From Candidatus Parvarchaeota archaeon (GTDB lineage: Archaea > Nanobdellota > Nanobdellia > JAAOXT01), in NCBI GenBank assembly GCA_017609605.1, contig JAFCDO010000004.1, positions 14,184 through 78,183 of the forward strand: DNA of 64,000 nt, written 5' to 3'. Below the pieces are notes generated by a model. It ran no database searches. It saw only the letters and a list, made by a program, of their open reading frames with translations, and was not told where the DNA came from. The position numbers and the translations under genes are program-made. This document shows, piece after piece, positions 3,129-31,199 of the stretch. The first letter of the stretch is position 1, and each line of letters begins with the position of its first letter.

Positions 3129-6100
3129 ATGTCAATTGAAAGAATACAAAAAAGAGATGGAAGAATCGCAAACTTTGAGCCAAATAAAATAACCGACGTC
3201 ATTTTCAAGGCTGCCGTGGCTGTTGGAGGAAGCGACAGAAAACTTTCCGAAGATCTTTCAAAAAAAGTGATCAAACTGCTGGAAGAAACGTTCCCCAACG
3301 GGGAAATCCCTTGCGTCGAGGACGTGCAGGATGCTGTTGAAAAAATTCTCATTAAAAATGGTCACGCCAAAACAGCCAAAGCCTACATTCTTTACAGAGA
3401 TAGGCGGGCAAGAGTTAGGGACTCTCAGAATCTTTTAATCAACATCAAGGAATTGACGGACGGATACCTGTCGCAAGCAGACTGGAGAGTCAGGGAAAAC
3501 GGAAACATGACTTATTCTTTATCAGGTCTGATGATGCACGTAACCGGAGCAGTGCTGGCTAACTACACGTTATCAAACGTTTACCCTCCTGAAATCTCTG
3601 AAGCTCACAGAAAGGGAGATATTCACATGCACGACCTTGGCATGGGCATCAGTGGTTATTGTGCAGGGTGGAGCCTGAGGCAATTATTGATGGAAGGTTT
3701 TAACGGAGTTCCCGGAAAAATAGATTCCACCCCTCCCAAACACTTGGACTCCGCGTTATGGCAGATGATAAACTTCATCGGAACCCTTCAAAACGAGTGG
3801 GCAGGAGCCCAAGCCTTCAGCTCTTTCGACACTTTCCTAGCTCCGTTCATCAAAACAGACAAGCTGAACTATGACAAAGTAAAGCAAGCGGTTCAAGGAT
3901 TCATATTTAACATGAACGTTCCAAGCAGGTGGGGCGGGCAGTGCGTCAGCGAAGACACTGAATGTCTTACGAACAATGGATGGAAATTCTACAAAGAAAT
4001 AAGTTCGAAAGATAAGATTGCGACGTTCAACGTTAAAACCAAAAAAATAGAATACTTGAAGCAGGAAAGAGTCAAAGAATATGATTATGACGGTTACCTA
4101 ATAAAATTATCAAACAGGACTCAAGAACAATTAGTAACTCCTAATCACAAAGTTGTGAGAAAAGTTTTCAACTCAAACAAATACGTTCTCGAAGAAGCAG
4201 AGGACTTGCTAAAACTTAAAACAGGAGTCATGATTCCTAACTCTGCTTCAACAAACTCAAAAGAAGAAGTGAAAGACTATTTGATTGAACTCATTGCTTG
4301 GCTAGTAAGTGAAGGAACTTTCAGCGAAGACAGGAAAAGAGTATCATTATTCCAGAGCGAAAAAAACAAGAGTAAAGTGGAAAAGATAAGAAAATGTTTG
4401 CGCGAAAACGACTTTAAATGGGATGAAACAAAACGAATCCATGGGTTCGGAAATAATTACACTATAAGGTTCAGACTTAATCAGGAAAGCTCAAGAAAAG
4501 TGCGGAAAACGCTGAATTCAAAACAAGTGCCTGAATTTGTCAAAAAATTGTCAAAAAGACAGATAAAACTTTTCATAGACACGTATGTTCTGGGCGACGG
4601 GCACGTTGAAAAAAACGGGAGAACAAGGATTTACACCAAAGATGAGGGCGTGTTGAACTCTCTTCAGGAACTGTGCTCGCTCTGCGAATACGGGACAACA
4701 GTTTACCAAAGAGAAAACGGGGTTTATACGATAAACCTCATAAGAAACAATGATACGCTGGTAAAACTGTCTAAAGTAAAATATAAAGGAAAAGTGTGGT
4801 GCCCGACCACAAAAAACGGGACTTTTGTGGCGAGAAGAAAAGGGAACGTTTTCATAACCGGAAACACGCCCTTCAGTAATCTTACTTTTGATTGGATGGT
4901 TCCCGACGACCTGAAAAACGCGAAAGCCATTGTTGGAGGTAAAGAAATGGACTTCAATTACGGGGACTGCCAGAAAGAAATGGACATGATTAACAAAGCG
5001 TTTCTGGAAGTAATGATGAGTGGAGACGCGAGCGGGAGGATATTCACTTTCCCAATACCAACCTACAACATAACCAAGGATTTTGACTGGGACAGCGAAA
5101 ACGCAAAAATCCTTTTTGACATGACAGCAAAATACGGGATACCCTACTTTCAGAACTTCATAAACAGTGATCTAAAACCCTCTGACATTAGGAGCATGTG
5201 TTGCAGGCTTCAAATGGACATGAGAGAACTCAGGAAGAGAGGAAATGGCTTGTTCGGCGCTGCAGAAATGACTGGCTCCATAGGCGTTATCACGCTGAAC
5301 ATGGCAAGAATAGGTTACTTATCAAAAAACAAAGAAGATTTTTTGTTCAGAGTTGAAAAACAGATGACGATCGCGAAAAACTCGCTTGAAATAAAAAGAA
5401 AAGTTGTTGAGAAAAACATGGAGGGCGGGCTCATGCCTTTTTCAAAAAGATATCTGGGAACCCTGAAAAACCATTTTTCAACCATAGGCCTCAACGGGAT
5501 GAACGAAGCAATGCTTAACTTCATGGGAAAAGACTTGTCAGACCCCGAAGCAATAAAATTTACAAAAGACGTTCTGGAATTCATGAGAAACAAGATAAAA
5601 GAGATTCAGGAAGAAACAGGCCACATGTATAATTTGGAGGCCACTCCCGCAGAAGGTGTTAGTTACCGGTTCGCCAAAAAAGACGTGGGATTGTTCCCAG
5701 ACATAATCGTGGCAAACCCTGAAGAGTTCAAAAAAGGGGCTGAGCCGTACTACACGAACTCAACCACTCTACCCGTTGACTTAACTGACGACCTGTTCCA
5801 GGCACTGGAATTGCAGGACGATTTGCAAACCCTTTACACGGGCGGAACAGTGTTCCACGCTTTCTTGAAAGAAAACCTTAACAGCGGCGAAACCTGCAAA
5901 AAACTTGTTCAAAAAGTGGCCGAGTCTTTCAAAATGCCTTACTTCACCGTAACCCCAACTTTCAGCATATGCCCAGTGCACGGGTACCTGAAAGGAAGGG
6001 TTTGGACCTGTCCGCACGAACACACCGAAGCACAGATTGAAAAATGGGGGGCAAAAAGAGAGGAAGAAACAGTTATTCCTTGCGAGGTCTTCAGCAGAGT

Positions 6101-6206
6101 GGTCGGGTATTTCAGGCCAGTCCAGCAGTGGAATGACGGCAAACAGTCCGAGTTCATGAAAAGAAAAGAGTTCAGCAACGAAAAACTGTTAGAAAAAGCG
6201 AAATGA
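3129..6206 (+). CDS. nrdD: Anaerobic (class III) ribonucleoside-triphosphate reductase NrdD, interrupted by an intein
   Basis: N-terminal ATP-cone. Conserved NVPSRWGGQ/TPFSNLTFDW block split by the intein. C-terminal glycyl-radical motif SRVVGYFRPV with upstream Cys/His cluster. Confidence 0.9.
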   Translation: MSIERIQKRDGRIANFEPNKITDVIFKAAVAVGGSDRKLSEDLSKKVIKLLEETFPNGEIPCVEDVQDAVEKILIKNGHAKTAKAYILYRDRRARVRDSQNLLINIKELTDGYLSQADWRVRENGNMTYSLSGLMMHVTGAVLANYTLSNVYPPEISEAHRKGDIHMHDLGMGISGYCAGWSLRQLLMEGFNGVPGKIDSTPPKHLDSALWQMINFIGTLQNEWAGAQAFSSFDTFLAPFIKTDKLNYDKVKQAVQGFIFNMNVPSRWGGQCVSEDTECLTNNGWKFYKEISSKDKIATFNVKTKKIEYLKQERVKEYDYDGYLIKLSNRTQEQLVTPNHKVVRKVFNSNKYVLEEAEDLLKLKTGVMIPNSASTNSKEEVKDYLIELIAWLVSEGTFSEDRKRVSLFQSEKNKSKVEKIRKCLRENDFKWDETKRIHGFGNNYTIRFRLNQESSRKVRKTLNSKQVPEFVKKLSKRQIKLFIDTYVLGDGHVEKNGRTRIYTKDEGVLNSLQELCSLCEYGTTVYQRENGVYTINLIRNNDTLVKLSKVKYKGKVWCPTTKNGTFVARRKGNVFITGNTPFSNLTFDWMVPDDLKNAKAIVGGKEMDFNYGDCQKEMDMINKAFLEVMMSGDASGRIFTFPIPTYNITKDFDWDSENAKILFDMTAKYGIPYFQNFINSDLKPSDIRSMCCRLQMDMRELRKRGNGLFGAAEMTGSIGVITLNMARIGYLSKNKEDFLFRVEKQMTIAKNSLEIKRKVVEKNMEGGLMPFSKRYLGTLKNHFSTIGLNGMNEAMLNFMGKDLSDPEAIKFTKDVLEFMRNKIKEIQEETGHMYNLEATPAEGVSYRFAKKDVGLFPDIIVANPEEFKKGAEPYYTNSTTLPVDLTDDLFQALELQDDLQTLYTGGTVFHAFLKENLNSGETCKKLVQKVAESFKMPYFTVTPTFSICPVHGYLKGRVWTCPHEHTEAQIEKWGAKREEETVIPCEVFSRVVGYFRPVQQWNDGKQSEFMKRKEFSNEKLLEKAK
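3942..4865 (+). mobile_element. Intein (308 aa) with LAGLIDADG homing-endonuclease domain inside NrdD
   Basis: Begins at Cys (CVSEDTECLT). Block B is LVTPNH (TxxH). Two LAGLIDADG-type motifs (LIAWLVSEGT, FIDTYVLGDGHV). Ends ...NVFITGN followed by +1 Thr. Removing it restores the contiguous NrdD motif WGGQ-TPFSN. Confidence 0.8.
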
Positions 6207-6962: not shown

Positions 6963-7334
6963 GTGAAGGACAGAAAACAAGCTGAAAAAATTTGGTCTTA
7001 CTTTAAAAAACACAAGACTCGTTTTGAATTACTGGCTCGCACCGCTGGTTTCAAGCTGGACAAGTTCAACTTACCCATGTCAAAAACAATCGACTCTATT
7101 GGTATTACTTTCGGGATTATCGTAACAAAAGAAAAGGATAAGGTTAGACGAGGATTAAATGTTTGTTTCGTGAATAGGGATTTTGGAAGAATGCACGATC
7201 TCGCTGATTCGTACGCTGCAGGAAGTGTTGAAACAATTAATCTAATTAGATTGGACGAAAACGTTTTAGATCAGGTGAGAGAAAAACTTGAATACTGGTT
7301 TGGCGAGACGTTAAGAATACAGCTGCTCACTTGA
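6963..7334 (+). CDS. Hypothetical protein (start uncertain; see the A9 homopolymer finding)
   Basis: 123-codon ORF opening with GTG. A well-placed ATG (6926) with an upstream TATA lies in another frame, separated by an A9 run. Confidence 0.35.
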   Translation: MKDRKQAEKIWSYFKKHKTRFELLARTAGFKLDKFNLPMSKTIDSIGITFGIIVTKEKDKVRRGLNVCFVNRDFGRMHDLADSYAAGSVETINLIRLDENVLDQVREKLEYWFGETLRIQLLT

Positions 7335-10693: not shown

Positions 10694-13600
10694 CTAACTA
10701 ATGAATTCTGTTAGCCCTGTTTGCTTCTCTATTTCGTAACCAAAGTTTTGCTCAATCCTCTCGTTCAACAGTTCAAGAACTTGCTTTAAGTAATCGTTCA
10801 TGTGAAATTCTTTTCCAAGATTCATCGAGATATCAACGTATTTTTTAACGCTTCCCTCAGCTATCGTAAAAATTATTTTGCCACCGCACCTAGAGCACTT
10901 GCCTGACAGGGGCGGCCTGCGAAACTTTTCGTTGCAGCTAACGCACCTGACTTGCTGGGTTGAAAACTTTCTCAAATTACCTTTAATATCTCTTAAGAAG
11001 TGTCGCTCAATCACCAGCCTAGCAACGTCATCAGCGTCAACCGCGCTAATCTTCTCCGCCAAATCCATCTGCCCCTTGACCTTATCCAGCATCGTGGTCA
11101 ACGTTTTATAAGCTGAAACCGTTGCGCCCGCGCTCAACGAAGACGTGGGGTGAGTGAACCACAAGTTCTTGTATTGTTCAGGCTTCCCAAGTCTCGTCCC
11201 AACTTTGTCAATTTTCACGTCCCAAGGGTAAAGCATTTTTTCAGTTGCCTTATAAAATTCAAGCGGATACTTTTTCACGGTGTCCAACGCGTGCACCTCG
11301 CTGTCTATTTCTAACGGGTTTATCATCGTCGTCATCACTAGCGGGGCGTCCATGGTTCTTCCTCCCCTTCGATTTGGCAGGTATTGTCTGCTAAAGTTTA
11401 GGAGCGCGTCCATCAGCATTAAAACACAGTCCTCGTCTCCATCACAATTTCTTCTGGTGGCGGCGTGCATGTAAGGGTGAGCGTAAAAAGCCTGTGAATC
11501 ACTGAAACCAATTATTCTTCCAAGAGTGGCTGCGCTGGTGTGAGGGGCTAGCACGAGCACTAACTGGCCGAGAAGATCTTCTTCTTTTTTTATCCTGTAA
11601 ACAGGTTTAATCTTGTAAATTTTTTCGAGCTCCTCGTCAACAAAGTTGCAAATCTTAGTCAACTCTTCCGCAGCGTTCGATTCAGCGTGATTTTTGCATT
11701 TTGGCAGTATAACATCCTGAGGAAAGAGTTCGAGCAACTGGCCTTCATTATCCAAGAGTTTGCCGTCAACATCCTCAGTATACCCCAATTTTTTCAGGTC
11801 TTTAACGCTCGCCGATATCTCGTGAGGGTAAAAATGGGTTACCGGCAGTTCAATCATGTCAAACCTTGAAGTCCCATCTTTATTGACATAAGTCTTATTC
11901 TTCGCTCTCAATATTGATTTCGGCAGTATTTCAGAAATATGATACTTATTGCTCGTTCCTCGGGGTCCTTTAACGAGTTCAGGCATATCGCATTTCAACC
12001 TTTTCAAAACGTTTTCCGTGTAATCTTCAATTCTGATAGGTCTTTTATTGTAATTTAATGTTTCATTGTTGCAATGAATTTTTTCTTTGGTTAAAACCCC
12101 GCACCTCACGCAAGTTCTTTGGCGCTCGCAACCCCCCCCGCACTTTTCGCATAAAGAAGTAATGGTTTTGCTCCCGCAGTTATTGCATTTGTAAAACGGG
12201 AAGTCTGTCTCAATAAAACCTTCTTTTATCGCGGCGTTAAGGCTTCTCAGCCTCCCCCCTTGAACCCCTACGGGAAATAATCCGTGAGGCTTCCCTTTAA
12301 GGGTTCTAAGCTTCGCTTTTTCAGGTCTTCCCATTCGCGACCCAACATAAATACCCGCTTTATCCTTCAACGAGTGCTTACACAACTGGTTCACCGCATC
12401 CAAACAGTCTTTGCTGTTTTTGAGTATGTCAAGAATGTTTTCTTTTTCTAAACCCCCCAAGTTCAAAAGTATGGAACTCGCTTCAGTTCCTTGAATGATT
12501 ATTTGCTCGCCGATTAGTTGATGAGGCAGAAACAAGTTTTCAAGAATTTCTTTCACTTTCTCGTTGAACTCTCCTTTTATCAGTTCACTTGATTTTTGAG
12601 AGCTTCTCAACCAGGAATAAATCCTTTCTAGTTCGCGCAACGAAATATTATTCCAAAACAAGGTGAACTCTGGGTATAAAGCAATTCCTAGCCTCTCAGA
12701 AACAATCTTTGCTTGCATAAGGTTGGGTTTTTCTGTAAAAGGCTTGTCAACCCAACTCATCAATTCCTCTCTTGTTATGCCAAGCTTGTCAGCTAAGAAA
12801 ACGTCTTCTCCCATGTTCTTTTCCAACAATAAAGCCCACCACTCCCTAACAAACGGGGATGGGATTAGGGCTTGACCGTTTTCAGAGAACTCGCCGTGAC
12901 TTACAAGAATGTCGCCCAAAAACAGGATTTTCTTTATTTTTGACAGGACTTGGTTGGCTTGTTCAACGGTTTCCACATTAACGACTGACCCATTTTCTAA
13001 AAGAACGACAGGACCATTTATTGAATCGCAAGGAGTGAGAGCGGTAGCTTTTCCCGGCCGCTCAATTTTCAGCTGGGTTCCTATGGCCAAGAAGTCTCCA
13101 GTCACTTTCATCGTTGCTGGATGTATTGAACACGCTGCTAACCCGCTAAGCCTGCTTCTCCCATACCTTAACCTAAAACCTCCTCTTCTCATAGGATAAC
13201 CGACTATGGGTCTTCCAGCAACAGCGTCCTGAATGTATCTCGTGTTAGGAGCGACTCCTTTGTCTGATCCAGAACCTTTTTTGCTTCCAAGTATTTCTGA
13301 CTGAATCCTTAAGAACTCGTCAAGGAAAAGCCAGTTTTCCAAACCAAAATCTTTTCCCCATTCATGAATTTTTTTCACCACTTTCTTCGCTTTCTGAGCG
13401 ATTCCTTCCGCAATAACGAGGCACATGCCTCCTCTAATCATGTTCGTCTCAACCCTTGGCAAATCCTTGTCCTTGGATACTTCAAACTTGGTTGTCGGAT
13501 CACCAGTTATCTCGACTGGAAGATTCTTCAAAAGAAAAACTATTTCTTTTCTTGAAGGATGGTACTGCAGTCTTGAAACCCTATCATGATAATCGTTAAT

Positions 13601-14176
13601 CTCCGTAACGTATCGCTCAATTTCTTTCTCGCTCGGATCATATTCTGAAAAACCCATTTCTTTCCTGATGTAATCAGCGATGAGAACGCTGACCGCTTCT
13701 GCCGTTCCTCCAGAAGCGCGTATGGGCCCAGCGTAATACACTGCCACGTAGTCTTTGCCGTCCCTTCTCTTCTTTATTTTTGCTTCAACAAAGCCTTCCA
13801 GAGGTGCTGAAACTATTCCTAGCGTGATGTAAGCAAGAGCTATTCTAACTCCTGCTTCAAAAGCTTTCACGGGTTCATCAAATTTTAAGAATTTACTCGT
13901 CGCAACTTCTTTTCCAATGATTAAGGCGACCCTCCAGTCACTGAAACCAAATTCTTTCTCTAACTCAATTATTCTTTTTGGAATTCCTTTACCCACTATT
14001 TCAGGAATCACTGCTGAAACCAATCTGACAACCCTTTCAGCCATGTTTTTGGCCATTGGAATGTCAACGTTTGTTTCAGGGTCAAAACCTTTTTCTCTCG
14101 CTTTTGTCGCGACGCCGTAAAGTTTTTCAGTCTCTTCCTGAAGTCTTTTAAAATATTCTTCGATGTTCATCTGCAA
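10694..14176 (-). CDS. DNA polymerase D (PolD) large catalytic subunit DP2
   Basis: 1160 aa. Characteristic DP2 N-terminus (EEYFKRLQEE...KAREKGFDP) and Cys-cluster zinc modules (CNNCGSKT...CEKCGG; CVSCNEKF...CSRCGG). No intein. Confidence 0.95.
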   Translation of the reverse strand: MQMNIEEYFKRLQEETEKLYGVATKAREKGFDPETNVDIPMAKNMAERVVRLVSAVIPEIVGKGIPKRIIELEKEFGFSDWRVALIIGKEVATSKFLKFDEPVKAFEAGVRIALAYITLGIVSAPLEGFVEAKIKKRRDGKDYVAVYYAGPIRASGGTAEAVSVLIADYIRKEMGFSEYDPSEKEIERYVTEINDYHDRVSRLQYHPSRKEIVFLLKNLPVEITGDPTTKFEVSKDKDLPRVETNMIRGGMCLVIAEGIAQKAKKVVKKIHEWGKDFGLENWLFLDEFLRIQSEILGSKKGSGSDKGVAPNTRYIQDAVAGRPIVGYPMRRGGFRLRYGRSRLSGLAACSIHPATMKVTGDFLAIGTQLKIERPGKATALTPCDSINGPVVLLENGSVVNVETVEQANQVLSKIKKILFLGDILVSHGEFSENGQALIPSPFVREWWALLLEKNMGEDVFLADKLGITREELMSWVDKPFTEKPNLMQAKIVSERLGIALYPEFTLFWNNISLRELERIYSWLRSSQKSSELIKGEFNEKVKEILENLFLPHQLIGEQIIIQGTEASSILLNLGGLEKENILDILKNSKDCLDAVNQLCKHSLKDKAGIYVGSRMGRPEKAKLRTLKGKPHGLFPVGVQGGRLRSLNAAIKEGFIETDFPFYKCNNCGSKTITSLCEKCGGGCERQRTCVRCGVLTKEKIHCNNETLNYNKRPIRIEDYTENVLKRLKCDMPELVKGPRGTSNKYHISEILPKSILRAKNKTYVNKDGTSRFDMIELPVTHFYPHEISASVKDLKKLGYTEDVDGKLLDNEGQLLELFPQDVILPKCKNHAESNAAEELTKICNFVDEELEKIYKIKPVYRIKKEEDLLGQLVLVLAPHTSAATLGRIIGFSDSQAFYAHPYMHAATRRNCDGDEDCVLMLMDALLNFSRQYLPNRRGGRTMDAPLVMTTMINPLEIDSEVHALDTVKKYPLEFYKATEKMLYPWDVKIDKVGTRLGKPEQYKNLWFTHPTSSLSAGATVSAYKTLTTMLDKVKGQMDLAEKISAVDADDVARLVIERHFLRDIKGNLRKFSTQQVRCVSCNEKFRRPPLSGKCSRCGGKIIFTIAEGSVKKYVDISMNLGKEFHMNDYLKQVLELLNERIEQNFGYEIEKQTGLTEFIS

Positions 14177-15645
14177 AACTCCATCATCAGCATCTTATTG
14201 TTCTGCAAGTTTAATATCGGGACTTTACCCGGGTGAGGAGTTATCCCCAGTTTTTGCTGGAAAGACGTTTGTGCCTGCCAGCAGGAAGCGGACAACGCGA
14301 TAGTGCTGTTATAACGAGTTATGGCTGACACGTGCAAGTGGCCAGAAGCAAGCACGTCTGGAACAGTGCTCATCACGAGATGATCTTGTTCATACATGTC
14401 ACGACCAACCGCTCCATGAGGCGTTCCTAAATGCCGCTTTTTTAACAAAAATTTCAGCACTGCCTCAGGGTGCTCGTAACCCCTTTTTCTAAGACTATTA
14501 ACGTTGTCAAGGTACCACGTAAACGAGGTTCCATGATAAAGCAGCACGTCAAACCCGCAAAAATCGTTTTTAGCGTGGATGTTAACGCGACTCGGATTCG
14601 ATAACAGGGTCGCGTTTGGAAGCTCGTATAAATCCTTTGCAAAGCTTTTTCGCGGAAAAGGTTGCGGTTCTATCAATCTTGTCGCATCGTGATTGCCAGG
14701 AATCATTATTAAATTTATTTCTTCAGGAATCTGGGACAAATACTTGCCTACCTCTCGGTACTGCTGATAAACATCATTTATTAAAAGCTCTTTATCCTGC
14801 TCCGGATAAATTCCAACCCCCTCCACCAAGTCTCCGACCACGAATAAATATTTTATTTTTCTAGCAACATTCCTCTGGTTTTCAGGCCCCTCATCCCCTT
14901 TCAACCATTTCAGGAAATTTGAGAACTCCTTGCTCAAAAAATTGTTTGAGCCCACGTGAAGGTCCCCGATGAAAGCCGCGTAAACTTCTTCATCCGCGCG
15001 CTTGGCTTGCCTATCAGAAGGTATTTCAGGGAAAAAAACGTTATCCACGTACAAGTACCTGCCTTTTTTAGTTCCTTCAACCCCTATCACTTCATCATGG
15101 ATAATGCTCTCCGCTAAAGGATAAGCTAAGGACTTGGTCGTTATCATCCCCCTTATCTTACCTGTCGGGTCTTCAAATTCCAAAAAATAGTTTCCAGAAG
15201 ACACTTTCTTCACTTCAGAAACCATCACTATTGCCTGCACTTTATCACTACTTCTCTGAGAAGTTATCCTTGAAAGAGATAGGGGCATGGAAAGCGACGG
15301 CCTGTTTAAAAGAATTTTTTTAAGGGAATCATACCTGTTAAGATAATGTTTCACGAAATGCTTTAACTTGATTTCTCGATTACTCCACTTATAGCTTTTC
15401 AAAACGTTGACTCTTGAATGCAAATCCTCTCTAAAAGTTTTAGACTCTTTTGTTTTCAATATTTTGACTGGTTTTTGAAATTCCTTAAACTTCAGGTAAA
15501 CTTCCTCATTGATAACGAAAGGTTTGGGCTCCATTTTTTTGACAAAATCCAAGAAAGGGTTTATTTCATGCCCCATGTCCTCCAAGTTAAAGGAAGAGTC
15601 CAACAAAAACCCGCTATTATAGAACTCCTGGATGAGGGTTTTCAT
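14167..15645 (-). CDS. DNA polymerase D small subunit DP1 (Mre11-like phosphoesterase)
   Basis: 492 aa with calcineurin-like phosphoesterase motifs GDLHVGS, VVGDLVEGVG, PGNHD, GHLH. Overlaps both neighbouring genes, consistent with an operon. Confidence 0.9.
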   Translation of the reverse strand: MKTLIQEFYNSGFLLDSSFNLEDMGHEINPFLDFVKKMEPKPFVINEEVYLKFKEFQKPVKILKTKESKTFREDLHSRVNVLKSYKWSNREIKLKHFVKHYLNRYDSLKKILLNRPSLSMPLSLSRITSQRSSDKVQAIVMVSEVKKVSSGNYFLEFEDPTGKIRGMITTKSLAYPLAESIIHDEVIGVEGTKKGRYLYVDNVFFPEIPSDRQAKRADEEVYAAFIGDLHVGSNNFLSKEFSNFLKWLKGDEGPENQRNVARKIKYLFVVGDLVEGVGIYPEQDKELLINDVYQQYREVGKYLSQIPEEINLIMIPGNHDATRLIEPQPFPRKSFAKDLYELPNATLLSNPSRVNIHAKNDFCGFDVLLYHGTSFTWYLDNVNSLRKRGYEHPEAVLKFLLKKRHLGTPHGAVGRDMYEQDHLVMSTVPDVLASGHLHVSAITRYNSTIALSASCWQAQTSFQQKLGITPHPGKVPILNLQNNKMLMMEFCR

Positions 15646-17153
15646 AATTCCAGAACCTCTTTAAGAATGTTATTCACTTTCAACAAGGAATCTGAAGGGA
15701 TTGCCAGAGATATCTGCCTTGTCCTCCCCCCCCTACCCCTATACAGGATTTTCGTGTTTATTATCCCCATAAGATCTAATTCAGCTATAAGGTCTGACAC
15801 TCTTCGACTAGTCAAAGGTTTCAGCCCGACCTTGTTAGCTATCTGCCCGTACATATCGTAAATATTGCTTGATTCGACAGGGGACTCGACTTCTAAGAGT
15901 TTTATTATTGAAAAAAGGACTATTTGAGATTGTTTAGGCTGTTTTTCAATAAGTGTTGCCACATTATCTCTCTCAATCTTTTCCTGAGCCATGTCCACGT
16001 GAGCTTCTCTGACGGAGCTAGATCTCTCCCTTTCAGCTAACTCTGCCGAAACCCTAAGCAATTCCAGAGCTTTTCTCGCGTCACCGTTTTCTCTTGCAGC
16101 ATAAGCCGCGCATTTAGAGATAACAGGTTCTTTAACAACTCCATCAAAAAAAGATATGTTCGCCCTTTCAGTTAACAAGTCTTTTAACTGGTCAGCATTG
16201 TAAGGAGAGAAAACGAATTCTTCTTCGCCTAAAGAAGATTTGGTTCTCGGGTCAAGATATTGTATGAATGTTGTGTCATTAGAAATGCCGATAAAAGATA
16301 TTTCTGAATTCTGAAGTTTATCCGAATTAATTCTTGTCAAACTATACATCAACTCACTTTTTTTACCGTCCTTCTTAACAAGATTGTCTATTTCGTCAAG
16401 AACAAGTATCACTTTCCTTTTATTGGAATCAATGGATCTGCAAAAAATGTCGTAAACTTCTTGTGTTGGAAGCCCTGTTGCAGGAACTTTCTCCCCAAAA
16501 TTTCTTGCCAGCTCCGCGAACAACCTGTACTCAGTATCCGCGGACTTACCAATCTTACAATTAAGAAACACTATATCCATGGGAATATCGTTCTCTTCGG
16601 CCTTTTTCTTTAACTGCTCGCAAACAAATTTAACGCAAACAGTCTTCCCTGTTCCAGGCTTACCATACACCAATAAGTTGGAAGGTTTTCTTTGATCAAG
16701 GATTGGAGAAAGAACGCTGGCGAGTTGGAGAATCTCCTCATCCCTATGAACTATTTTTTCAGGAAAATATCTAAGGGTCAAGGCCTCACCATTTTTAAAC
16801 AAAGTCTTCTTATCCTTCACAATATTATCAAATATGTTGGAAGTCATATCCCCCGGGAGTTCCTCAACAGAATCAAGGGACTCCTCTGCGCTTTCATGCC
16901 CGCTCGCCTCTGAGGACACAATATCAAATATGTTTGTCCCTTCCACTAATTCTTTAGATAACTCTTTCTCAGTTTCTTCCTCTTTTTCAGAAACACTTTT
17001 CTTCCCGACCGCGTTCTCAGACAACTCTTTTTTAGATTCCTTAAAAGTCTTTATTGACTGAATCAATAGCGTTAAATCCTCTTCAGACAACCCGTCGAAC
17101 AATCTTTTAACTGTTTCATTCTTAATTAAATTGAAAGAAGACTGTTTAGACAT
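15642..17153 (-). CDS. cdc6: Orc1/Cdc6 replication initiator with a long acidic N-terminal extension
   Basis: Walker A GKPGTGKT, Walker B VLDEID, C-terminal winged helix. Start moved to ATG 17153 (MSKQSS); the track's GTG at 17180 lies inside an ORB repeat. Confidence 0.9.
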   Translation of the reverse strand: MSKQSSFNLIKNETVKRLFDGLSEEDLTLLIQSIKTFKESKKELSENAVGKKSVSEKEEETEKELSKELVEGTNIFDIVSSEASGHESAEESLDSVEELPGDMTSNIFDNIVKDKKTLFKNGEALTLRYFPEKIVHRDEEILQLASVLSPILDQRKPSNLLVYGKPGTGKTVCVKFVCEQLKKKAEENDIPMDIVFLNCKIGKSADTEYRLFAELARNFGEKVPATGLPTQEVYDIFCRSIDSNKRKVILVLDEIDNLVKKDGKKSELMYSLTRINSDKLQNSEISFIGISNDTTFIQYLDPRTKSSLGEEEFVFSPYNADQLKDLLTERANISFFDGVVKEPVISKCAAYAARENGDARKALELLRVSAELAERERSSSVREAHVDMAQEKIERDNVATLIEKQPKQSQIVLFSIIKLLEVESPVESSNIYDMYGQIANKVGLKPLTSRRVSDLIAELDLMGIINTKILYRGRGGRTRQISLAIPSDSLLKVNNILKEVLEL

Positions 17154-17172
17154 CTTACTTCCAAAGAAGCAA

Positions 17173-17285
17173 CACCCCACTTATATTTCTTATGGAAGTG
17201 AATTATATAGTACCTGAGTTCAAAAAGAATACCCCTGCGTTTCGGATGGAAACGCCACCTACACTCACCTAGATTTCTTATGGAG
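17173..17285 (-). repeat. Three ORB-like origin recognition boxes, left cluster (read on the minus strand)
   Basis: Reverse complements of 17173-17197, 17231-17251 and 17264-17285 read TTCCATAAGAAATATAAGTGGGGTG, TTCCATCCGAAACGCAGGGGT and CTCCATAAGAAATCTAGGTGAG. Confidence 0.7.
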
Positions 17286-17404
17286 ATATGAAAACATCCT
17301 CCATTTCCTTTGAAAGCCTCGAACTTTTGTGCCAAGAGCTCATTAACAAACACACAGTTAAGTTAAACCACTAAAAGCGCCATATTCAAAGAAAATGGGG
17401 TTGT

Positions 17405-17550
17405 TATGCACTTATTTAACTTAATAAAACTTGTTTTACTGATTAAATTCGTTTTTAATGTTTATTTATTATTTATTATTTATTTACTATATTGTAAATA
17501 AATATATAATATATATAATATAATATATATAATATAAATTATATTATAAG
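17405..17550. other. AT-rich candidate DNA unwinding element of the replication origin
   Basis: ~145 bp composed almost entirely of A/T (TTTATTTATTATTTATTATTTATTTAC...ATATATAATATATATAATATAAT...), centred between the inverted ORB clusters. Confidence 0.65.
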
Positions 17551-17555
17551 CATTT

Positions 17556-17704
17556 TTCCATGGGAAACAGGGGAGTATGGTTCTATTTCTTGCAAAAGGA
17601 GTGTTTACTTCTTCATTGGAAATAAAGGGGTGTGTTTTGGACCCTGTTCTTGTTTTAGGTATGGAAAGAGTGTAATGAAATCTTCCATAGGAAGTTAAGG
17701 GGTG
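17556..17704 (+). repeat. Three ORB-like origin recognition boxes, right cluster (plus strand)
   Basis: TTCCATGGGAAACAGGGGAG (17556-17575), TTCATTGGAAATAAAGGGGTG (17612-17632), TTCCATAGGAAGTTAAGGGGTG (17683-17704). Degenerate half-sites GGAGTGT and GGAAAGAGTGT lie between them. Confidence 0.7.
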
Positions 17705-18207
17705 TGTGTGTCATATAGATTATTTTTGGCTTTTTTGAATAATGTTAGGTAATCTCTGCTCATCTTTTTGAACGTGCAAAATTGAATTAATGAATCTATT
17801 TTATTAAGAATTTTTTGTTTTTCAATGTCTGATATTTTTCTTTTGATCTTTTTTTCTATAATTTTTAATTCTTTTTCCATGACTTTTGTCCAATCAAATT
17901 CCATTTCTCTTTTTTCCATTTCCGGAATTTTTTCGGAGACGCGAATTGCTTGTGGGCCCAATGTGTAGTATGTTCTTTCTGTTTGGTCTCCCCAAGTGTA
18001 GTTACCTAGTTCTTTTCTTACTTTTACTAGTTGCACTTCTCCTGTTTTAACGCCTTGTTTTAGGTGATAATATATTGATTTCATGCTGACTTGTCCGAAA
18101 ACGTTTTTGTATATATGGTATATTTCGTAGCCGTAGGAGAATCCTTTTCTGTGCAGTATCTGACAAATCCGGTTTCGTATGATTGATCCTTTTGGCCGGC
18201 CCCTCAT
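17695..18207 (-). CDS. Winged-helix transcription regulator, PadR-like, with coiled-coil C-terminus
   Basis: Pattern GYEIYHIY...SIYYHLKQGVKTGEV...YYTL resembles the PadR wHTH. Start set at MRGRPKG (ATG 18207), which has a TATA ~38 nt upstream. Confidence 0.5.
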   Translation of the reverse strand: MRGRPKGSIIRNRICQILHRKGFSYGYEIYHIYKNVFGQVSMKSIYYHLKQGVKTGEVQLVKVRKELGNYTWGDQTERTYYTLGPQAIRVSEKIPEMEKREMEFDWTKVMEKELKIIEKKIKRKISDIEKQKILNKIDSLIQFCTFKKMSRDYLTLFKKAKNNLYDTHTP

Positions 18208-18240
18208 TTTATTACAATATTGTAAATTTCTGTTTGTGAA

Positions 18241-18250
18241 ATATATAAAT
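18241..18250. promoter_or_regulatory. Single TATA box shared by divergent genes
   Basis: ATATATAAAT is centred 38.5 nt from ATG 18207 (minus strand) and 39.5 nt from ATG 18285 (plus strand). Confidence 0.4.
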
Positions 18251-18284
18251 CTTTTAATATCCATTCTTTTGTTTTGTTATATTC

Positions 18285-19283
18285 ATGATATCTTTATCAG
18301 TGGACACAATTGTTGCTAAAATTGTTGAGGCATCCAAGCTTGATGAAAAAGTGGTTAGGGATAAGATTGTTGAGAAGAAAGCTGAGTTGTCTGGTCTTGT
18401 TTCTGATATAGGAGCAGCTCACATTGTCGCTAATAAATTGGGAGTCAATCTTATTCAACGTAGCGAGGGAGGCAGGATATTGATTAAGGATTTGGTTCCT
18501 GGTTTGAGGAACGTGGTGTTGCTGGGGCGCGTTTTGAATGTGAGTAAACCTGTGGTTTTTGATAGGAAGGATGGTAAGGGTAAGGTGAAGGTGGGTAACG
18601 TTTTTTTGCAGGATGAGAGTGGGAAGACAAGGGTTGTTTTTTGGAACGAGCAGACCACCGTTTTGGAGGATGGCACGATTAAGGAAGGTAAGGTCGTAAA
18701 GTTTTTTTATGGTTATGTCAAGCAAGGCAGGAATGATTATCCTGAGGTTCATTTGGGTGGAAGCTCTAAGTTTTTGATTGATCCTAAAAGCGATCCTGAT
18801 TACAGTAAGATTCCTGTTTCGAGTGGTTTTAATGGTCCTCAGAAGAGGTCTAAGATTTCTGAGTTGGAGGAAGGAAGATTTGAAGTGTTGGGAACTATTG
18901 TTAGCGTTTTTGAACCAAGATTTTATGATTCCTGTCCAGAGTGCAATTCTAAGGTCGTTGAAGGAGCGTGTTCTAAGCACGGGAACGTTGTTTCGAAGAG
19001 TAGTGGTTTTATGAGTGTTGTTTTGGATGATGGTTCCGGAACGATTAGGTGCACTTTTTTCAGGGATGTTGCTGAGAGTTTATTAGGGGAGAAGTTTGAG
19101 GTTTTGAAAAGTTCTCCTGATTCGTTTGAGAAAATTAAGGATTCTTTGCTCGGCTCTCAGATAATGGTTCTTGGAAGGATTAAGAATAATGAGCGGTTCG
19201 GCAATTTGGATATGGTGGCGTCATCAGTGGATAAGAATGTTGACTTTGCTGACGAGGCGAAAAAAGTTTTAGAATCTTCTTAA
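18285..19283 (+). CDS. Replication protein A-like ssDNA-binding protein (OB folds + zinc ribbon)
   Basis: 332 aa. N-terminus typical of archaeal RPA/RFA (IVAKIVE...LSGLVSDIGAAHIVANKLGV). OB-fold segments. CPECNSKVVEGACSKHG zinc motif. Confidence 0.8.
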   Translation: MISLSVDTIVAKIVEASKLDEKVVRDKIVEKKAELSGLVSDIGAAHIVANKLGVNLIQRSEGGRILIKDLVPGLRNVVLLGRVLNVSKPVVFDRKDGKGKVKVGNVFLQDESGKTRVVFWNEQTTVLEDGTIKEGKVVKFFYGYVKQGRNDYPEVHLGGSSKFLIDPKSDPDYSKIPVSSGFNGPQKRSKISELEEGRFEVLGTIVSVFEPRFYDSCPECNSKVVEGACSKHGNVVSKSSGFMSVVLDDGSGTIRCTFFRDVAESLLGEKFEVLKSSPDSFEKIKDSLLGSQIMVLGRIKNNERFGNLDMVASSVDKNVDFADEAKKVLESS

Positions 19284-22891: not shown

Positions 22892-22924
22892 GAATTACGT
22901 TTCGCGTAATTCAAACCGTTTTTT
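22892..22924 (+). terminator. Hairpin plus T-run downstream of the HTH-CBS gene
   Basis: GAATTACG-tttcg-CGTAATTC perfect 8-bp stem (22892-22912) followed by the T-run 22919-22924. A second hairpin, TGTGAA-gtaag-TTCACA, lies at 22868-22884. Confidence 0.3.
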
Positions 22925-22998
22925 GGGCCTGTAGCTTAGTCTGGTGGAGCGCACGGCTGATAACCGTGAGGTCTCGTGTTCGAATCACGACAGGCCCA
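22925..22998 (+). tRNA. tRNA-Ile (anticodon GAU)
   Basis: Acceptor GGGCCTG/CAGGCCC. Anticodon stem CACGG/CCGTG with loop CTGATAA. T-arm TCGTG-TTCGAAT-CACGA. No encoded CCA. Confidence 0.9.
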
Positions 22999-23036
22999 TT
23001 CCTAAATCAAAACTTGTTTTTTTTTCGTGAATTCTT

Positions 23037-25126: not shown

Positions 25127-25717
25127 ATGGAATCAAAAAAGGGAACGACAACTATAGGTGTCGTGTATAAAGATGGAATTATCCTAGTCGCGGATAGAAG
25201 GGTCACTGCAGGTAATCTTGTGGCGCACAAATCTTTCAAGAAGTTATACATGATTACTGATAACATCGCTGTAAGCGTGGCGGGAATGGTTTCAGACAAC
25301 CAGATGCTCATAAAATATTTGAAGTCCGCGATGAAAAAGTACGAGATTGAACGTGACAGGGAACCATCTGTTAAAGCTTGCTCAACTTATTTGTCCCACT
25401 TACTTTATGGTAATAGGTTCTCATTCCCTTTCCAAGCGAGAATCCTTATCGGAGGATACGATTCTAACGGTCCCTGCCTTTATTCTCTTGGAGGAGACGG
25501 GTCAAGAATAGATGATGATTACATTTCAACAGGTTCCGGTTCTCCAGTAGCTTACGGTGTTTTGGAGAGTTCTTACAGGAAAAACATGTCTGTTGAACAA
25601 GCGAGAGAACTCGCAATGAATTCCTTAAAAGCTGCGATGGAAAGAGATGCTTTCACGGGGGAAGGAATAGATTTGATGACGATAACAGTTAAGGGAATTA
25701 AATACGAGAGAGTTTAA
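25127..25717 (+). CDS. psmB: Proteasome beta subunit
   Basis: Short propeptide MESKKG followed by the catalytic Thr block TTTIGVVYKDGIILVAD. Confidence 0.9.
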   Translation: MESKKGTTTIGVVYKDGIILVADRRVTAGNLVAHKSFKKLYMITDNIAVSVAGMVSDNQMLIKYLKSAMKKYEIERDREPSVKACSTYLSHLLYGNRFSFPFQARILIGGYDSNGPCLYSLGGDGSRIDDDYISTGSGSPVAYGVLESSYRKNMSVEQARELAMNSLKAAMERDAFTGEGIDLMTITVKGIKYERV

Positions 25718-25735
25718 AATCAGGGAAAAAAAAAG

Positions 25736-27643
25736 ATGAAAGAGAAAAGATTTCCTATTTTTGGAAAAATAAAAGAACTATTGCCTGCCAACGCGCAGAT
25801 ATCCGATTACTTGTTCGAAGGAGCTAACATAGTTCTTTACACTAAAAACAAAAATCTTTTCCTAGAAGGAAGCGATTTGACCAGAAAAATTGTTAACACC
25901 ATAAAGAAAAGAGTGGAGTTCAGAATTGACCCTTCACTACTTCTTGGAGTTGAGCCAACAGAGGAGTTTATAAGAAAAATTATTCCAAAAGAGGCGGGTC
26001 TGAGAGACGTTTTCTTCGATAATCAAAGAAGTTTCGTGATCGTAGAGTCTGAAAACCCTGGTTCGGCCTCTGGCAGAGGGGGAGAAGTGCTCGAAGAAAT
26101 AAAAAGAAATACCCTTTGGATTCCGCGAATGATAAGAGTGCCTGCCATAAAGTCTGACATTGTTCGCACTATTCGCCGTTCACTGTTCGAGCAGTCAGAT
26201 TATAGGAGAAAATTCCTTAACTCCATAGGCGAAAAAATTTATTCAAGGTGGACTCGTGACAACAAGAAATATTGGATTCGCCTGTCCGCGTTGGGCGGTT
26301 TCAGGGAAGTCGGAAGGTCTTGCATGCTGTTGCAAACACCTCAGAGCAAGGTCATGATGGACTGCGGGGTTAACGTGGCGTCAGAAGATTACGGTTTCCC
26401 CCATCTGGAAGTTCCTGAATTCAACATTGATGAATTGGACGCGGTTATCATCACTCACTCCCACTTGGATCATTGTGGTTTCCTTCCTTACTTATTCAAA
26501 TTTGGTTACAAAGGACCAATTTACTGTACAGAGCCTACAAGGGACGTGATGACTTTACTGCAATTGGATTACATTGACGTGGCCCAAAAAGAGGGGAAAA
26601 AAATTATTTACACAAGCAAAGAGATAAAAGGATTAGTTCATAACACAATCTGTTTGAAGTACGGAGAAGTTAGTGACATAACTCCTGACATAAGAATAAC
26701 TCTTTTGAACGCTGGTCACATCCTCGGCTCTTCAATGATTCATCTTAACATTGGGAACGGTTACCACAATTTATTGTACTCCGGAGACATTAAGTACGCT
26801 AATTCTACAATGCTAGACCCTGCGCACACTTACTTCCAGAGATTGGAAACACTGATTCTTGAATCAACATACGGGGGGAGGAACAGTTTTCAACCTTCTT
26901 TAGAAGAATCTGAGAAAAAATTGTTGGATTTAACTAATAAAACGATTGAGAGAGGTGGAAAAATACTTATTCCAGTCTTAGGTGTGGGAAGAGCTCAGGA
27001 AATCATGCTTATCCTGGAAAAAGCTTTTCGTGAGAAGAAGATAAAACCCGTGAAAATTTTTGTGGATGGAATGGTGTGGGATGTTACAGCGATAAGCACG
27101 ACTTACCCCGAATTCATGAACAAAGAAGTTCGCAGACTGGTTTTCCAGAAAAACCATAATCCTTTTTTAAGCGAGATTTTCAACAGGGTTGGATCTAACA
27201 AAGAAAGAACTAAGATTATAGAGGAAGAAGGTCCGTGCATAATCCTCGCTACAAGCGGTATGCTGACAGGAGGTCCGAGCGTCACTTACCTGAACAGGTT
27301 GTGCGATAATAAGGATAACTCTTTGCTTTTCGTGTCTTATCAATCGGAAGGCTCGCTAGGAAGAGATTTGCAAAAGGGGATTAGAGAAATCCCTATTCCT
27401 AAAGGAAACAGGACAGAATTGATGAGAGTTAAGCTTGAAGTCGATACCTTGGAAGGGTTCAGCGGGCACAGTGATAGACAACAATTAATCAATTTTGTTA
27501 AACACTTAAGGCCTAGGCCAAGACGAGTAATTTTAGACCACGGAGAAAGTTCTAAATGCCTTGACTTGTCCAGCAGTCTTCACAACACTTTCCGAATTGA
27601 AACAACAGCTCCAAGAGTCTTAGACGTGGTTAGAATCAAATAG
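25736..27643 (+). CDS. aCPSF1-type beta-CASP ribonuclease with N-terminal KH domains (FttA-like termination factor)
   Basis: 635 aa. KH-like N-terminus. Metallo-beta-lactamase HSHLDHCG. Beta-CASP region. Conserved archaeal adjacency to psmB. Confidence 0.9.
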   Translation: MKEKRFPIFGKIKELLPANAQISDYLFEGANIVLYTKNKNLFLEGSDLTRKIVNTIKKRVEFRIDPSLLLGVEPTEEFIRKIIPKEAGLRDVFFDNQRSFVIVESENPGSASGRGGEVLEEIKRNTLWIPRMIRVPAIKSDIVRTIRRSLFEQSDYRRKFLNSIGEKIYSRWTRDNKKYWIRLSALGGFREVGRSCMLLQTPQSKVMMDCGVNVASEDYGFPHLEVPEFNIDELDAVIITHSHLDHCGFLPYLFKFGYKGPIYCTEPTRDVMTLLQLDYIDVAQKEGKKIIYTSKEIKGLVHNTICLKYGEVSDITPDIRITLLNAGHILGSSMIHLNIGNGYHNLLYSGDIKYANSTMLDPAHTYFQRLETLILESTYGGRNSFQPSLEESEKKLLDLTNKTIERGGKILIPVLGVGRAQEIMLILEKAFREKKIKPVKIFVDGMVWDVTAISTTYPEFMNKEVRRLVFQKNHNPFLSEIFNRVGSNKERTKIIEEEGPCIILATSGMLTGGPSVTYLNRLCDNKDNSLLFVSYQSEGSLGRDLQKGIREIPIPKGNRTELMRVKLEVDTLEGFSGHSDRQQLINFVKHLRPRPRRVILDHGESSKCLDLSSSLHNTFRIETTAPRVLDVVRIK

Positions 27644-27709
27644 CCTTGCACTTTGGTTCAAGATTGAATAAAAATTTATAAACAACGCAATTCTTTTTCT
27701 TTTTCATTG

Positions 27710-28231
27710 ATGAAAACAGGTCTTTTGATAAGGGATGCGATGACATCGGAACCAGTTCACTGCAGTAGTGACTGGACGGTTAACAAAGCTGTTGACCTCA
27801 TGATCAAAAAACGGGTTGGAAGCCTTATAGTCAAAGAAGGAGATTTCTTAAAAGGAATACTAACTGAAAGCGATTTGATAAAAAAAGTTTTATCAAAAGG
27901 AAAAAACCCTAACAAAATACTTGTTTCTGAAGTGATGACTCACGACGTGGTTACCATCGGGCCAGACAGGGACGTGACTAAAGCCATGACTTACATGGCT
28001 AAGAAAAAAGTGAGAAGACTTCCAGTTGTTGAAAAGGAGAAAATCGTGGGCGTCATAACCATGAAGGATATAATCAAGATTCAGCCAGAATTGATTGACT
28101 TATTGTTCAGGAGAAAAAAAAGTGTGAACGAAGGGTTAGGGATTATCGGGGAGTGCGAGAACTGTCAAGCCAAACAAGTTAGTCTTATGGGTGTTGGGGA
28201 CAGGCTTCTCTGCAAGAATTGCATGGAATAA
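27710..28231 (+). CDS. CBS-pair protein with C-terminal zinc ribbon
   Basis: Two CBS repeats (MTSEPV...; VMTHDVVTI...RRLPVVE...GVITMKDI) followed by CENCQ...CKNC. Confidence 0.7.
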   Translation: MKTGLLIRDAMTSEPVHCSSDWTVNKAVDLMIKKRVGSLIVKEGDFLKGILTESDLIKKVLSKGKNPNKILVSEVMTHDVVTIGPDRDVTKAMTYMAKKKVRRLPVVEKEKIVGVITMKDIIKIQPELIDLLFRRKKSVNEGLGIIGECENCQAKQVSLMGVGDRLLCKNCME

Positions 28232-28317
28232 AGTGCCACGCACAAAAATAATGTTTGACGCATGAAAAATTGGCGTAATAAAAAACTTTTTAATCACATA
28301 CTATTTCTATAATCATC

Positions 28318-28791
28318 ATGCCTGAAGAAGAAACAGTAGCTAAAACAAAGATAAAGTATAAGGGAGGGTTTGACCTAGGAGATGCTTATGATGTTCTTCA
28401 CGACTTGTTCGTGACCATGGGTTACACTGTTGAAGAAAAAAAATACAAGGAGACCGTTAAAAAGGATAAAGGAGAGAAAGATTTGCAAATAACCTGGGAA
28501 TGCGATAAGAACGTTGATGATTTCACCAAATTCATGATAAACATTAACTTCTTCATAATTGGTTTTAAGAAAGGGTGGGCTGACGCTGAAATAGCTTTCA
28601 AGTCCGCGCTCAGAACGGATTATGAAGGAAGATGGGAGACCAATCCTTTCCTGAAATTCTTAAAAGGGGTTTACAAAAAATATTTGTACAAAAGCGTTTA
28701 CGACGAGTGGAAAACGCAGGTCAGGGATGAAATGTACCAAATAAAAACTGAACTGGAATCTTACCTGAGAGTCGAGAAACTAGCCAGATAA
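28318..28791 (+). CDS. Hypothetical protein (157 aa)
   Basis: ATG ORF with AAAACTTTTTAAT about 36 nt upstream. No recognisable motif. Confidence 0.4.
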   Translation: MPEEETVAKTKIKYKGGFDLGDAYDVLHDLFVTMGYTVEEKKYKETVKKDKGEKDLQITWECDKNVDDFTKFMININFFIIGFKKGWADAEIAFKSALRTDYEGRWETNPFLKFLKGVYKKYLYKSVYDEWKTQVRDEMYQIKTELESYLRVEKLAR

Positions 28792-29025
28792 GAAAGGTTT
28801 TTAAAGGACAAAAATCGCTCTGTTTATTAATTCACACTAAAGAAAGAAATTTATTTCGTACATATTACAAATCACAGAAAAAAAATCATTAATATTCATT
28901 TGCATTGCAAAATCTTTTCACAAAAAAGTTTTTTTGGGAAAAAATCCTGACTGGTGCAAGAAGCAAAAGGTAACACCTTTTTCTGCGCGAATTTCTTTCC
29001 TTGAAGTGAGGAGGTAAACAAAAAC

Positions 29026-30210: not shown

Positions 30211-30258
30211 GCTTCGCTAAACATTAAAAAACTTCGAATAAATAATATATTAATTAGT

Positions 30259-31173: not shown

Positions 31174-31176
31174 AAC
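31163..31176 (+). promoter_or_regulatory. TATA-like element for the SRP RNA
   Basis: AAAAGCTTTAAAAC lies ~25-30 nt upstream of the start of the GC-rich RNA. It overlaps the stop codon of the upstream gene. Confidence 0.4.
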
Positions 31177-31199
31177 ATTCATTATCCCCGTCTTTTTTT

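Follow-up and report, generated by a model that had tools for sequence, protein, structure and literature searches.

A candidate Orc1/Cdc6-type replication origin upstream of cdc6 in a DPANN archaeon

Boxes and AT-rich tract in the cdc6-upstream spacer

The candidate replication origin described here occupies a non-coding spacer of ~540 bp (17154-17694) in a 64,000-nt stretch of contig JAFCDO010000004.1 from a Candidatus Parvarchaeota archaeon; this whole stretch of 64 kb is called the window, and all coordinates refer to it. The spacer lies between two minus-strand open reading frames (ORFs), orc1/cdc6 (15642-17153), which encodes the presumed initiator, and an ORF at 17695-18264. It contains no credible ORF, the largest being a 75-aa overlap artefact, and gave no match to an Rfam family at E values up to 1. 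Within it we found six boxes that share the register TCCA-N3-GAAA-N(2-7)-GGGGT, which is that of the canonical archaeal origin recognition box (ORB) and can be compared with the published Methanomicrobia motif TCCA[GC]T[GT]GAAA[CT][AG]A[AT]GGGGT (PMC4164010). An AT-rich tract separates three minus-strand boxes on its left from three plus-strand boxes on its right, and the G-run is distal to the tract in all six. The spacer between GAAA and the G-run has the canonical length of 4 nt in four of the six boxes and measures 2 nt in box R1 and 7 nt in box L1. The features of the region are as follows (the relatives' matrix and the a-priori pattern are described in the next section).

15642-17153, minus strand: orc1/cdc6, 503 aa from the ATG at 17153; Pfam Cdc6_C, Cdc6_lid and AAA_22
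17173-17197, minus strand: box L1, TTCCATAAGAAATATAAGTGGGGTG, 7-nt spacer; 16.7 bits with the relatives' matrix
17231-17251, minus strand: box L2, TTCCATCCGAAACGCAGGGGT, full ORB with 4-nt spacer; a-priori pattern with 0 mismatches
17265-17285, minus strand: box L3, CTCCATAAGAAATCTAGGTGA, 4-nt spacer, CTCC core and degenerate G-run GGTGAG; in its longer form (17255-17285, CTCCATAAGAAATCTAGGTGAGTGTAGGTGG) an ORB whose G-string is GT-rich and degenerate, 24.0 bits with the relatives' matrix
17295-17314, minus strand: variant box, TTCAAAGGAAATGGAGGATG, inverted partner of the box at 17385-17403; weak as an ORB
17385-17403, plus strand: variant box, TTCAAAGAAAATGGGGTTG, bordering the AT tract on its left; the G-run points towards the tract, a polarity opposite to that of the six main boxes
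17405-17552, no strand: AT-rich tract, presumed DNA unwinding element (DUE), 90% A+T, core 17453-17552, with short tandem units TTATTTA and ATATAATATATATA
17556-17576, plus strand: box R1, TTCCATGGGAAACAGGGGAGT, 2-nt spacer, abutting the AT tract; 12.9 bits, 1 mismatch to the a-priori pattern
17590-17607, plus strand: degenerate partial copy, TTGCAAAAGGAGTGTTTA, read from the sequence, direct-repeat family D5; weak evidence
17612-17632, plus strand: box R2, TTCATTGGAAATAAAGGGGTG, 4-nt spacer, TTCA-TTG-GAAA in the same register as the other boxes; in its longer form (17612-17636, TTCATTGGAAATAAAGGGGTGTGTG) a full ORB and the window's top match to the relatives' matrix, 26.1 bits, 1 mismatch to the a-priori pattern
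17660-17676, plus strand: degenerate partial copy, TATGGAAAGAGTGTAAT, read from the sequence; weak evidence
17683-17704, plus strand: box R3, TTCCATAGGAAGTTAAGGGGTG, 4-nt spacer; in its longer form (17683-17711, TTCCATAGGAAGTTAAGGGGTGTGTGTGT) a full ORB, 25.7 bits with the relatives' matrix, 1 mismatch to the a-priori pattern

An earlier note on this DNA had reported six boxes with their G-strings distal to the AT tract, and all six are present where it placed them and with that polarity. The pattern it proposed, TTCCAT-N2-GAAA-N3-7-GGGGTG, does describe a shared motif, with the corrections that the register is TCCA-N3-GAAA and that the spacer spans 2-7 nt instead of 3-7 nt. Its '3+3' layout is right about six inverted boxes and is simplified in that L1 is mini-ORB-like, the G-string of L3 is degenerate and two extra variant boxes are present. 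The half-sites it mentioned among the right-hand boxes can be recognized as the degenerate copies at 17590-17607 and 17660-17676, and the resemblance it drew to the ORB/mini-ORB architecture of archaeal oriC is borne out by consensus boxes, inverted arrangement, AT-rich DUE and adjacency to cdc6. At the right-hand end, box R3 runs with its GT tail into the final codons of the ORF at 17695-18264.

The origin region is asymmetric, with R1 abutting the AT tract and L3 standing ~120 bp away from it, and the pair of variant boxes lies in between. This pair (TTCAAAGRAAATGG) forms an inverted repeat, I25, that is 93% complementary over 14 nt. The 70 bp between the variant boxes (17315-17384) are not AT-rich and are the most variable part of the origin in comparison with a relative whose Cdc6 is 97% identical. 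The AT tract itself had been described as nearly pure A/T over ~145 bp; its location is as described, and its purity is lower, 17405-17550 being 90.4% A+T. The richest 145-nt segment, 17413-17557, reaches 91.7% A+T; the next richest in the 64 kb has 80%. By nearest-neighbour stability, the least stable 100-nt duplex of the 64 kb is 17453-17552, at z = 5.8 below the window mean.

Box L1 contains a TATA-like element, AAATATAA (17181-17188), whose position relative to the cdc6 ATG, -35 to -28, is that expected of an archaeal TATA box for a near-leaderless mRNA. A 17-nt block of this box, CATAAGAAATATAAGTG, is invariant in four genomes (the window and the relatives' loci L001, L004 and L005), and the G-run that follows the block is not conserved, reading GGGGT, AGAT, TATC and CGGT. 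Because the G-string is not conserved, L1 is better read as a mini-ORB plus a TATA-like element, and from its sequence it is probably a mini-ORB core fused to such an element and overlapping the cdc6 promoter. This overlap suggests that cdc6 is autoregulated.

Chance expectation, conservation and GC skew

The significance of the boxes was assessed in three ways. A composite-box regular expression, derived from the window data and compared with Markov-simulated sequence as the null, has six matches in 64 kb, all of them in the spacer, whereas the simulation gave 0.52, with two as the most ever seen in 600 nt. Because this expression came from the data, two further tests were added. The first used an a-priori pattern, TCCA-N3-GAAA-N4-GGGGT with up to 2 mismatches, taken from the literature (cf. 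the Methanomicrobia and Sulfolobaceae motifs; PMC4164010); it has five matches, all in 17231-17703, with 1.8 expected for the whole 64-kb window. The second used a weight matrix whose boxes were all taken from other genomes (loci L002 and L008-L011). When ~128,000 positions were scored with it, the six boxes were among the seven best, and R2, R3 and L3 scored 24-26 bits, the null reaching at most 18.5. Taken by itself, the 12-nt core (TTCCATNNGAAA, 1 mismatch allowed) was not enriched across the window, with 13 matches against 11 expected; it is thus only the composite box with its G-run, and not the core alone, that is diagnostic. Neither the matrix nor the a-priori pattern revealed a second ORB cluster in dp1 or elsewhere in the 64 kb. 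In dp1 itself (14167-15645) there was no matrix match of 10 bits or more and no match to the a-priori pattern, and one isolated core with 1 mismatch was seen at 14529.

Relatives were obtained by protein search and contig look-ups, and a scan of a genome collection with Cdc6 gave three loci. The arrangement was compared in L001, L002, L004 and L008-L011. The nearest public genome is the Nanoarchaeota (DPANN) metagenome-assembled genome (MAG) DPANNHV_H2.bin.114 (JAAOXT010000001.1), in which Cdc6 is 97% identical and the origin region 96% identical, with all boxes kept save for two changes in the L1 G-run. The variant box at 17385-17403 is conserved in L001. In L004, whose Cdc6 is 83% identical, the cdc6-proximal half carries five boxes in the same orientation that align with L1-L3, the spacers having diverged; box L2 is positionally conserved there, and box L3 aligns with a GGTG-type box. 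Among loci with 47-57% Cdc6 identity, namely L002 (Nanohaloarchaea) and L008-L011 (Woesearchaeota/Nanoarchaeia), the gene order is kept. The gene for DP1, the small subunit of DNA polymerase D (PolD), follows cdc6 and is itself followed by that for the large subunit, DP2, in L008, L009 and L011; cdc6-DP1 is found in L010, and DP1 is also downstream of cdc6 in L004 and L005. The cdc6-upstream spacer measures 370-720 bp and is 74-82% A+T in L008-L011, and is less AT-rich, 61%, in L002. In all five of these loci, inverted ORB-like boxes with distal G-runs, in the order ORB(-)/AT/ORB(+), precede cdc6, and when the window's own boxes are made into a matrix, its best matches fall in the cdc6-upstream spacers of all five. 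A rough ORB consensus for the clade is tTTCCAyNNGAAAT-N2-3-GG(G/T)GTG followed by a GT-rich tail.

Two further observations concern these relatives. ORB-like boxes that the window's matrix scores strongly, at 16-26 bits, also occur 2-4 kb from the cdc6-upstream spacer, at L010:2463-2547 (minus strand) and L009:1095 (minus strand); those of L010 are two in number and lie in an intergenic gap between TBP and TraB-family genes, near MCM. From their sequence, these distant boxes may be accessory Orc1 sites. In addition, the metagenome contigs of the closest intermediate relatives end at or beside the AT tract, with L004 starting inside it and L005-L007 starting 38-80 nt upstream of cdc6 (L004:1-330; L005:1-80; L006 and L007:1-38). 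This suggests that assemblies systematically break at the AT-rich, repeat-bearing origin, and because of this truncation the comparison in L004-L007 covers the cdc6-proximal half of the origin and not the far half.

The cumulative GC skew, a check that the earlier note had proposed, was run within the 64 kb and has its G-C minimum at 17387, inside the spacer, with the sharpest left-to-right change at 17372. Since the coding strand also affects skew, we regressed the skew of each gene on its orientation and on its side of the site. After correction for orientation, the side-of-origin effect amounted to 0.079 +/- 0.015 when all positions were taken, and third codon positions alone gave 0.158 +/- 0.029. 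The plus-strand third-position skew ranges from -0.09 to -0.24 in DP2, DP1 and cdc6 and from +0.33 to +0.52 in six genes right of the site, on either strand; it is -0.24 in cdc6 and steps up to values of +0.33 to +0.49 in the genes next in line. A switch of skew sign at the cdc6-upstream spacer is also seen in L001, L008, L010 and L011. The AT, RY and MK cumulative curves all peak at 7094-7334, at a change from plus-strand to minus-strand genes; their peaking at this change shows that these disparities track the direction of transcription in this genome and not replication.

Initiator, interpretation and alternatives

The product of orc1/cdc6 matches NCBIfam TIGR02928 with 405.9 bits against a cut-off of 181.3. 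Among solved structures it best matches Orc1-1 of S. solfataricus (2QBY_A, E = 1.6e-95) and ORC1 of A. pernix (2V1U, E = 2.4e-86), the initiators for which structures on ORB or origin DNA are known. With AAA+, lid and C-terminal winged-helix domains and Orc1-1/ORC1 as its nearest relatives, the protein has the features of an Orc1-1/oriC1-class initiator. It also has an N-terminal extension of ~100 aa (residues 1-115; 16810-17153, minus strand), giving it 503 aa against ~400 in nearly all homologues; among the 120 best Cdc6 matches, only the three closest clusters (P0001-P0003) exceed 440 aa. The extension consists of a conserved ~40-aa head (MSxQ...F..LSEED..L..S.K), an acidic and lysine-rich low-complexity linker of variable length, and a second motif, NIFD; residues 1-115 contain no Pfam domain.

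Taken together, the elements of an archaeal Orc1/Cdc6-type oriC are all found at this locus: a non-coding region adjacent to cdc6, ORB repeats, inverted ORBs around an AT-rich DUE, a local GC-disparity extreme, and conservation. The order ORB(-)/DUE/ORB(+) is that of a minimal functional archaeal origin (bioRxiv 10.64898/2026.08.15.744077; PMC4010727). On what was observed here, namely sequence anatomy, statistics, skew, synteny and conservation, we consider it very probable that the spacer 17154-17694 is the chromosomal oriC, or at least one Orc1/Cdc6-dependent origin, of this uncultivated DPANN archaeon (Nanoarchaeota/Nanobdellota). The GC3 skew (that of third codon positions) is evidence that the site is used: because an orientation-independent GC/GC3 switch falls at the spacer, and does so in four of the five Nanoarchaeota relatives, replication forks appear to have diverged from it over evolutionary time.

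The events at the spacer, that is Orc1 binding, MCM loading, melting, initiation and autoregulation, can be proposed by analogy with the oriC1-type origins of Sulfolobus, Aeropyrum and Pyrococcus (PMC4010727, PMC1904270, PMC3089459, bioRxiv 10.64898/2026.08.15.744077). We predict that Orc1/Cdc6 from the adjacent gene would bind each ORB as a monomer, its winged helix contacting the TCCA-N3-GAAA core and its AAA+ initiator-specific motif the GGGGT run. Because the left and right sets of boxes are inverted, the bound initiators would face each other across the 150-bp AT tract, where they would recruit two MCM helicase rings; the tract would then melt and replication proceed bidirectionally. Initiator bound at the cdc6-proximal box, with its TATA-like element ~30 nt upstream of the start codon, would probably also repress transcription of cdc6.

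Several observations weigh against an origin at this site. Only 17 kb lie to the left of it and the skew minimum is local to the window, so that a deeper extreme or a second origin may lie elsewhere. The overall skew is positive again in genes at 2-7 kb, and the AT, RY and MK disparities have no extreme at the site and turn instead at ~7.1-7.3 kb, an extreme in these measures not being obligatory for archaeal origins. L009 shows no GC3 switch at its cdc6-upstream spacer. In the 97%-identical relative the G-run of L1 carries mutations, and L004 and L005 lack it, so that L1 is perhaps only a promoter or a mini-ORB. Finally, Thermococcus kodakarensis grows without Cdc6 and oriC, and an origin-like locus can therefore be dispensable (PMC5663688).

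One alternative is that the boxes are genuine Orc1/Cdc6 sites at a locus that serves mainly to control cdc6-polD transcription, or that is a dormant origin, with replication starting elsewhere or by recombination. Such a role would fit the position of L1 over a TATA-like element ~30 nt upstream of the cdc6 ATG, where the conserved part is the core with the TATA and not the G-run, and it has precedents in documented dormant and dispensable Cdc6-type origins (PMC5663688; bioRxiv 10.64898/2026.08.15.744077) and in non-initiator Orc1 paralogues that act as transcription regulators (PMC9738581). However, a promoter needs no 150-bp tract of 90% A+T between inverted sets of boxes, and the orientation-independent switch in GC and GC3 lies exactly at the spacer here and at the equivalent spacer in most of the Nanoarchaeota relatives; we therefore regard this explanation as improbable. 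It is less probable still that the site is a secondary origin, captured with its own orc1 from an integrated extrachromosomal element, and not the ancestral chromosomal one. Element-derived replicator-initiator pairs are frequent in archaeal chromosomes (PMC4010727) and the N-terminal extension of Cdc6 is unusual, but the housekeeping synteny of cdc6-DP1-DP2 and isoleucyl-tRNA synthetase (IleRS) is common to relatives down to ~55% Cdc6 identity, Cdc6 is of the Orc1-1/oriC1 class with an ORB of the ancestral oriC1 type, and no integrase or mobile-element gene was found among the ORFs, near the origin and throughout the window, that were scanned with Pfam. Chance or low-complexity similarity in AT-rich intergenic DNA, or sites for an unrelated transcription factor, would sit well with the bare core being no commoner than expected, yet this explanation is effectively refuted by the confinement of the core with its G-run to the spacer, by the scores obtained with a matrix from unrelated genomes and by the same boxes upstream of cdc6 in five other genomes.

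For the origin that we favour, one may ask whether it is more than a plain 3+3 set of ORBs, combining autoregulation through L1, a second factor or state at the variant pair, and a regulatory layer in the N-terminus of Orc1. We think this combination rather unlikely, and offer it tentatively. In it, the composite mini-ORB/TATA box may allow the initiator, after loading of the origin, to silence its own gene together with the PolD genes in the same orientation; the variant-box pair could be a site for another factor or for Orc1 in a second conformational state; and the clade-specific Orc1 extension could add a regulatory layer reminiscent of the N-terminal tails of eukaryotic Orc1/Cdc6. If true, this joint reading would give a DPANN symbiont's replicator-initiator module that is compact and amenable to experiment.

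Gene context and comparison with known origins

The genes around the origin region are listed below together with RNA genes found elsewhere in the window.

10694-14176, minus strand: PolD large subunit DP2; Pfam PolC_DP2_N, PolC_DP2_central and PolC_DP2_cat
14167-15645, minus strand: PolD small subunit DP1, directly downstream of cdc6; Pfam Metallophos and DNA_pol_E_B
17695-18264, minus strand: ORF of 189 aa without confident family, bordering the origin on its far side
18285-19283, plus strand: RPA-like single-stranded-DNA-binding protein, the second gene on the far side; Pfam OB-fold domains and Rep_fac-A_C
22924-22999, plus strand: tRNA-Ile(GAT)
31195-31472, plus strand: archaeal signal recognition particle RNA, 128.7 bits
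37773-37858, plus strand: tRNA-Ser(GCT)

Pfam and NCBIfam agree on the cdc6-PolD small-PolD large arrangement that the earlier note had recognized, a synteny as in Pyrococcus (PMC1904270), and both also identify the RPA that it had placed as the next gene but one, here the RPA-like protein at 18285-19283, whose NCBIfam match to 'replication factor A' (E = 4e-45) is below the equivalog cut-off. For the ORF at 17695-18264 only weak matches to a Card1-like nuclease (E = 8e-4) and to PadR-like winged-helix proteins (E ~0.4) were obtained, and no family was assigned; in relatives its position is taken by different genes, TrmB or PRC-barrel. The wider neighbourhood includes IleRS, aIF5A, aRF1, S-adenosylmethionine synthetase and methionyl-tRNA synthetase. 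The flanking replication and housekeeping genes therefore indicate a chromosomal housekeeping context.

Elsewhere in the window, the anaerobic ribonucleotide reductase NrdD (3129-6206, plus strand, 1025 aa) aligns with the NRDD profile over two stretches, and its residues 479-544 correspond to a LAGLIDADG-like domain; an intein or a homing endonuclease insertion is probably present. Third-position GC skew is near zero (-0.08 to +0.08) in the genes of 25127-37746, as against +0.2 to +0.5 in flanking genes of the same replichore, which is consistent with a recent inversion or acquisition. Within this block, a 2077-aa ORF (31513-37746, plus strand) is matched by neither Pfam nor NCBIfam and falls where the GC content of the window is highest (0.47-0.49, as against ~0.41); unlike most genes right of the origin, it has a third-position GC skew near zero. 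A giant surface protein is one possibility for this ORF, and recent acquisition of the DNA another.

As a candidate, the locus has the anatomy of a textbook Orc1/Cdc6-type oriC on the standard archaeal plan; it is canonical, would not surprise a specialist and leaves the current view of how archaeal replication starts unchanged. Its value lies in being a clean and compact example, of ~540 bp, with defined boxes, an unwinding element and a cognate initiator, and in providing an ORB consensus at the level of the clade. It could serve to anchor genome coordinates, to estimate growth rates from read depth, and as a start for replicating vectors or in-vitro binding assays. In the literature we found no experimentally characterized replication origin from a DPANN archaeon. 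Automated pipelines claim oriC calls across Nanobdellota assemblies (bioRxiv 10.64898/2026.08.15.744077), and authors working on this phylum rotate its genomes to the ORC1/Cdc6 gene, routinely treating that locus as the origin (bioRxiv 10.64898/2026.05.13.725050).

The closest likeness is to the oriC1-type origins. As in S. solfataricus oriC1, A. pernix oriC1 and the origins of Methanomicrobia, the boxes have a TCCA-N3-GAAA core, a spacer of ~4 nt and GGGGT (PMC4164010; PMC1904270), and inverted boxes surround an AT-rich DUE beside an orc1/cdc6 gene whose product is nearest to Orc1-1/ORC1. The present origin differs from these in its DPANN host, in the extension of the G-string into a GT-rich tail (GGGGTGTGTG or GGTGAGTG), in a spacer that varies from 2 to 7 nt among boxes and in the ~100-aa N-terminal extension of Cdc6. 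With the oriC of Pyrococcus and other Thermococcales it shares a single cdc6 directly downstream of the origin, followed by DP1 and DP2, as well as inverted ORBs with partial or mini copies and AT-rich stretches (PMC1904270). The Pyrococcus ORBs are 34 bp long with a 9-nt spacer (TTCCAGTGGAAATGAAACTCTGGGGGG, the ORB1 oligonucleotide), and many 13-bp mini-ORBs occur with them, as does a second ORB cluster in dp1 (PMC1904270); in contrast, the boxes here measure ~20-25 bp with mostly a 4-nt spacer, partial copies are few and dp1 holds no cluster. The pattern ORB(-)/DUE/ORB(+) is present in 59-67% of predicted Cdc6-type origins (bioRxiv 10.64898/2026.08.15.744077). Like the Cdc6-type oriCs predicted in Nanobdellota and other MAGs (Ori-Finder-Arch, DoriC), the locus has an ORB-bearing intergenic region adjoining the initiator gene, as in the 'Type I' rule; beyond those predictions, GC3-skew regression and cross-genome matrix tests have been added here.

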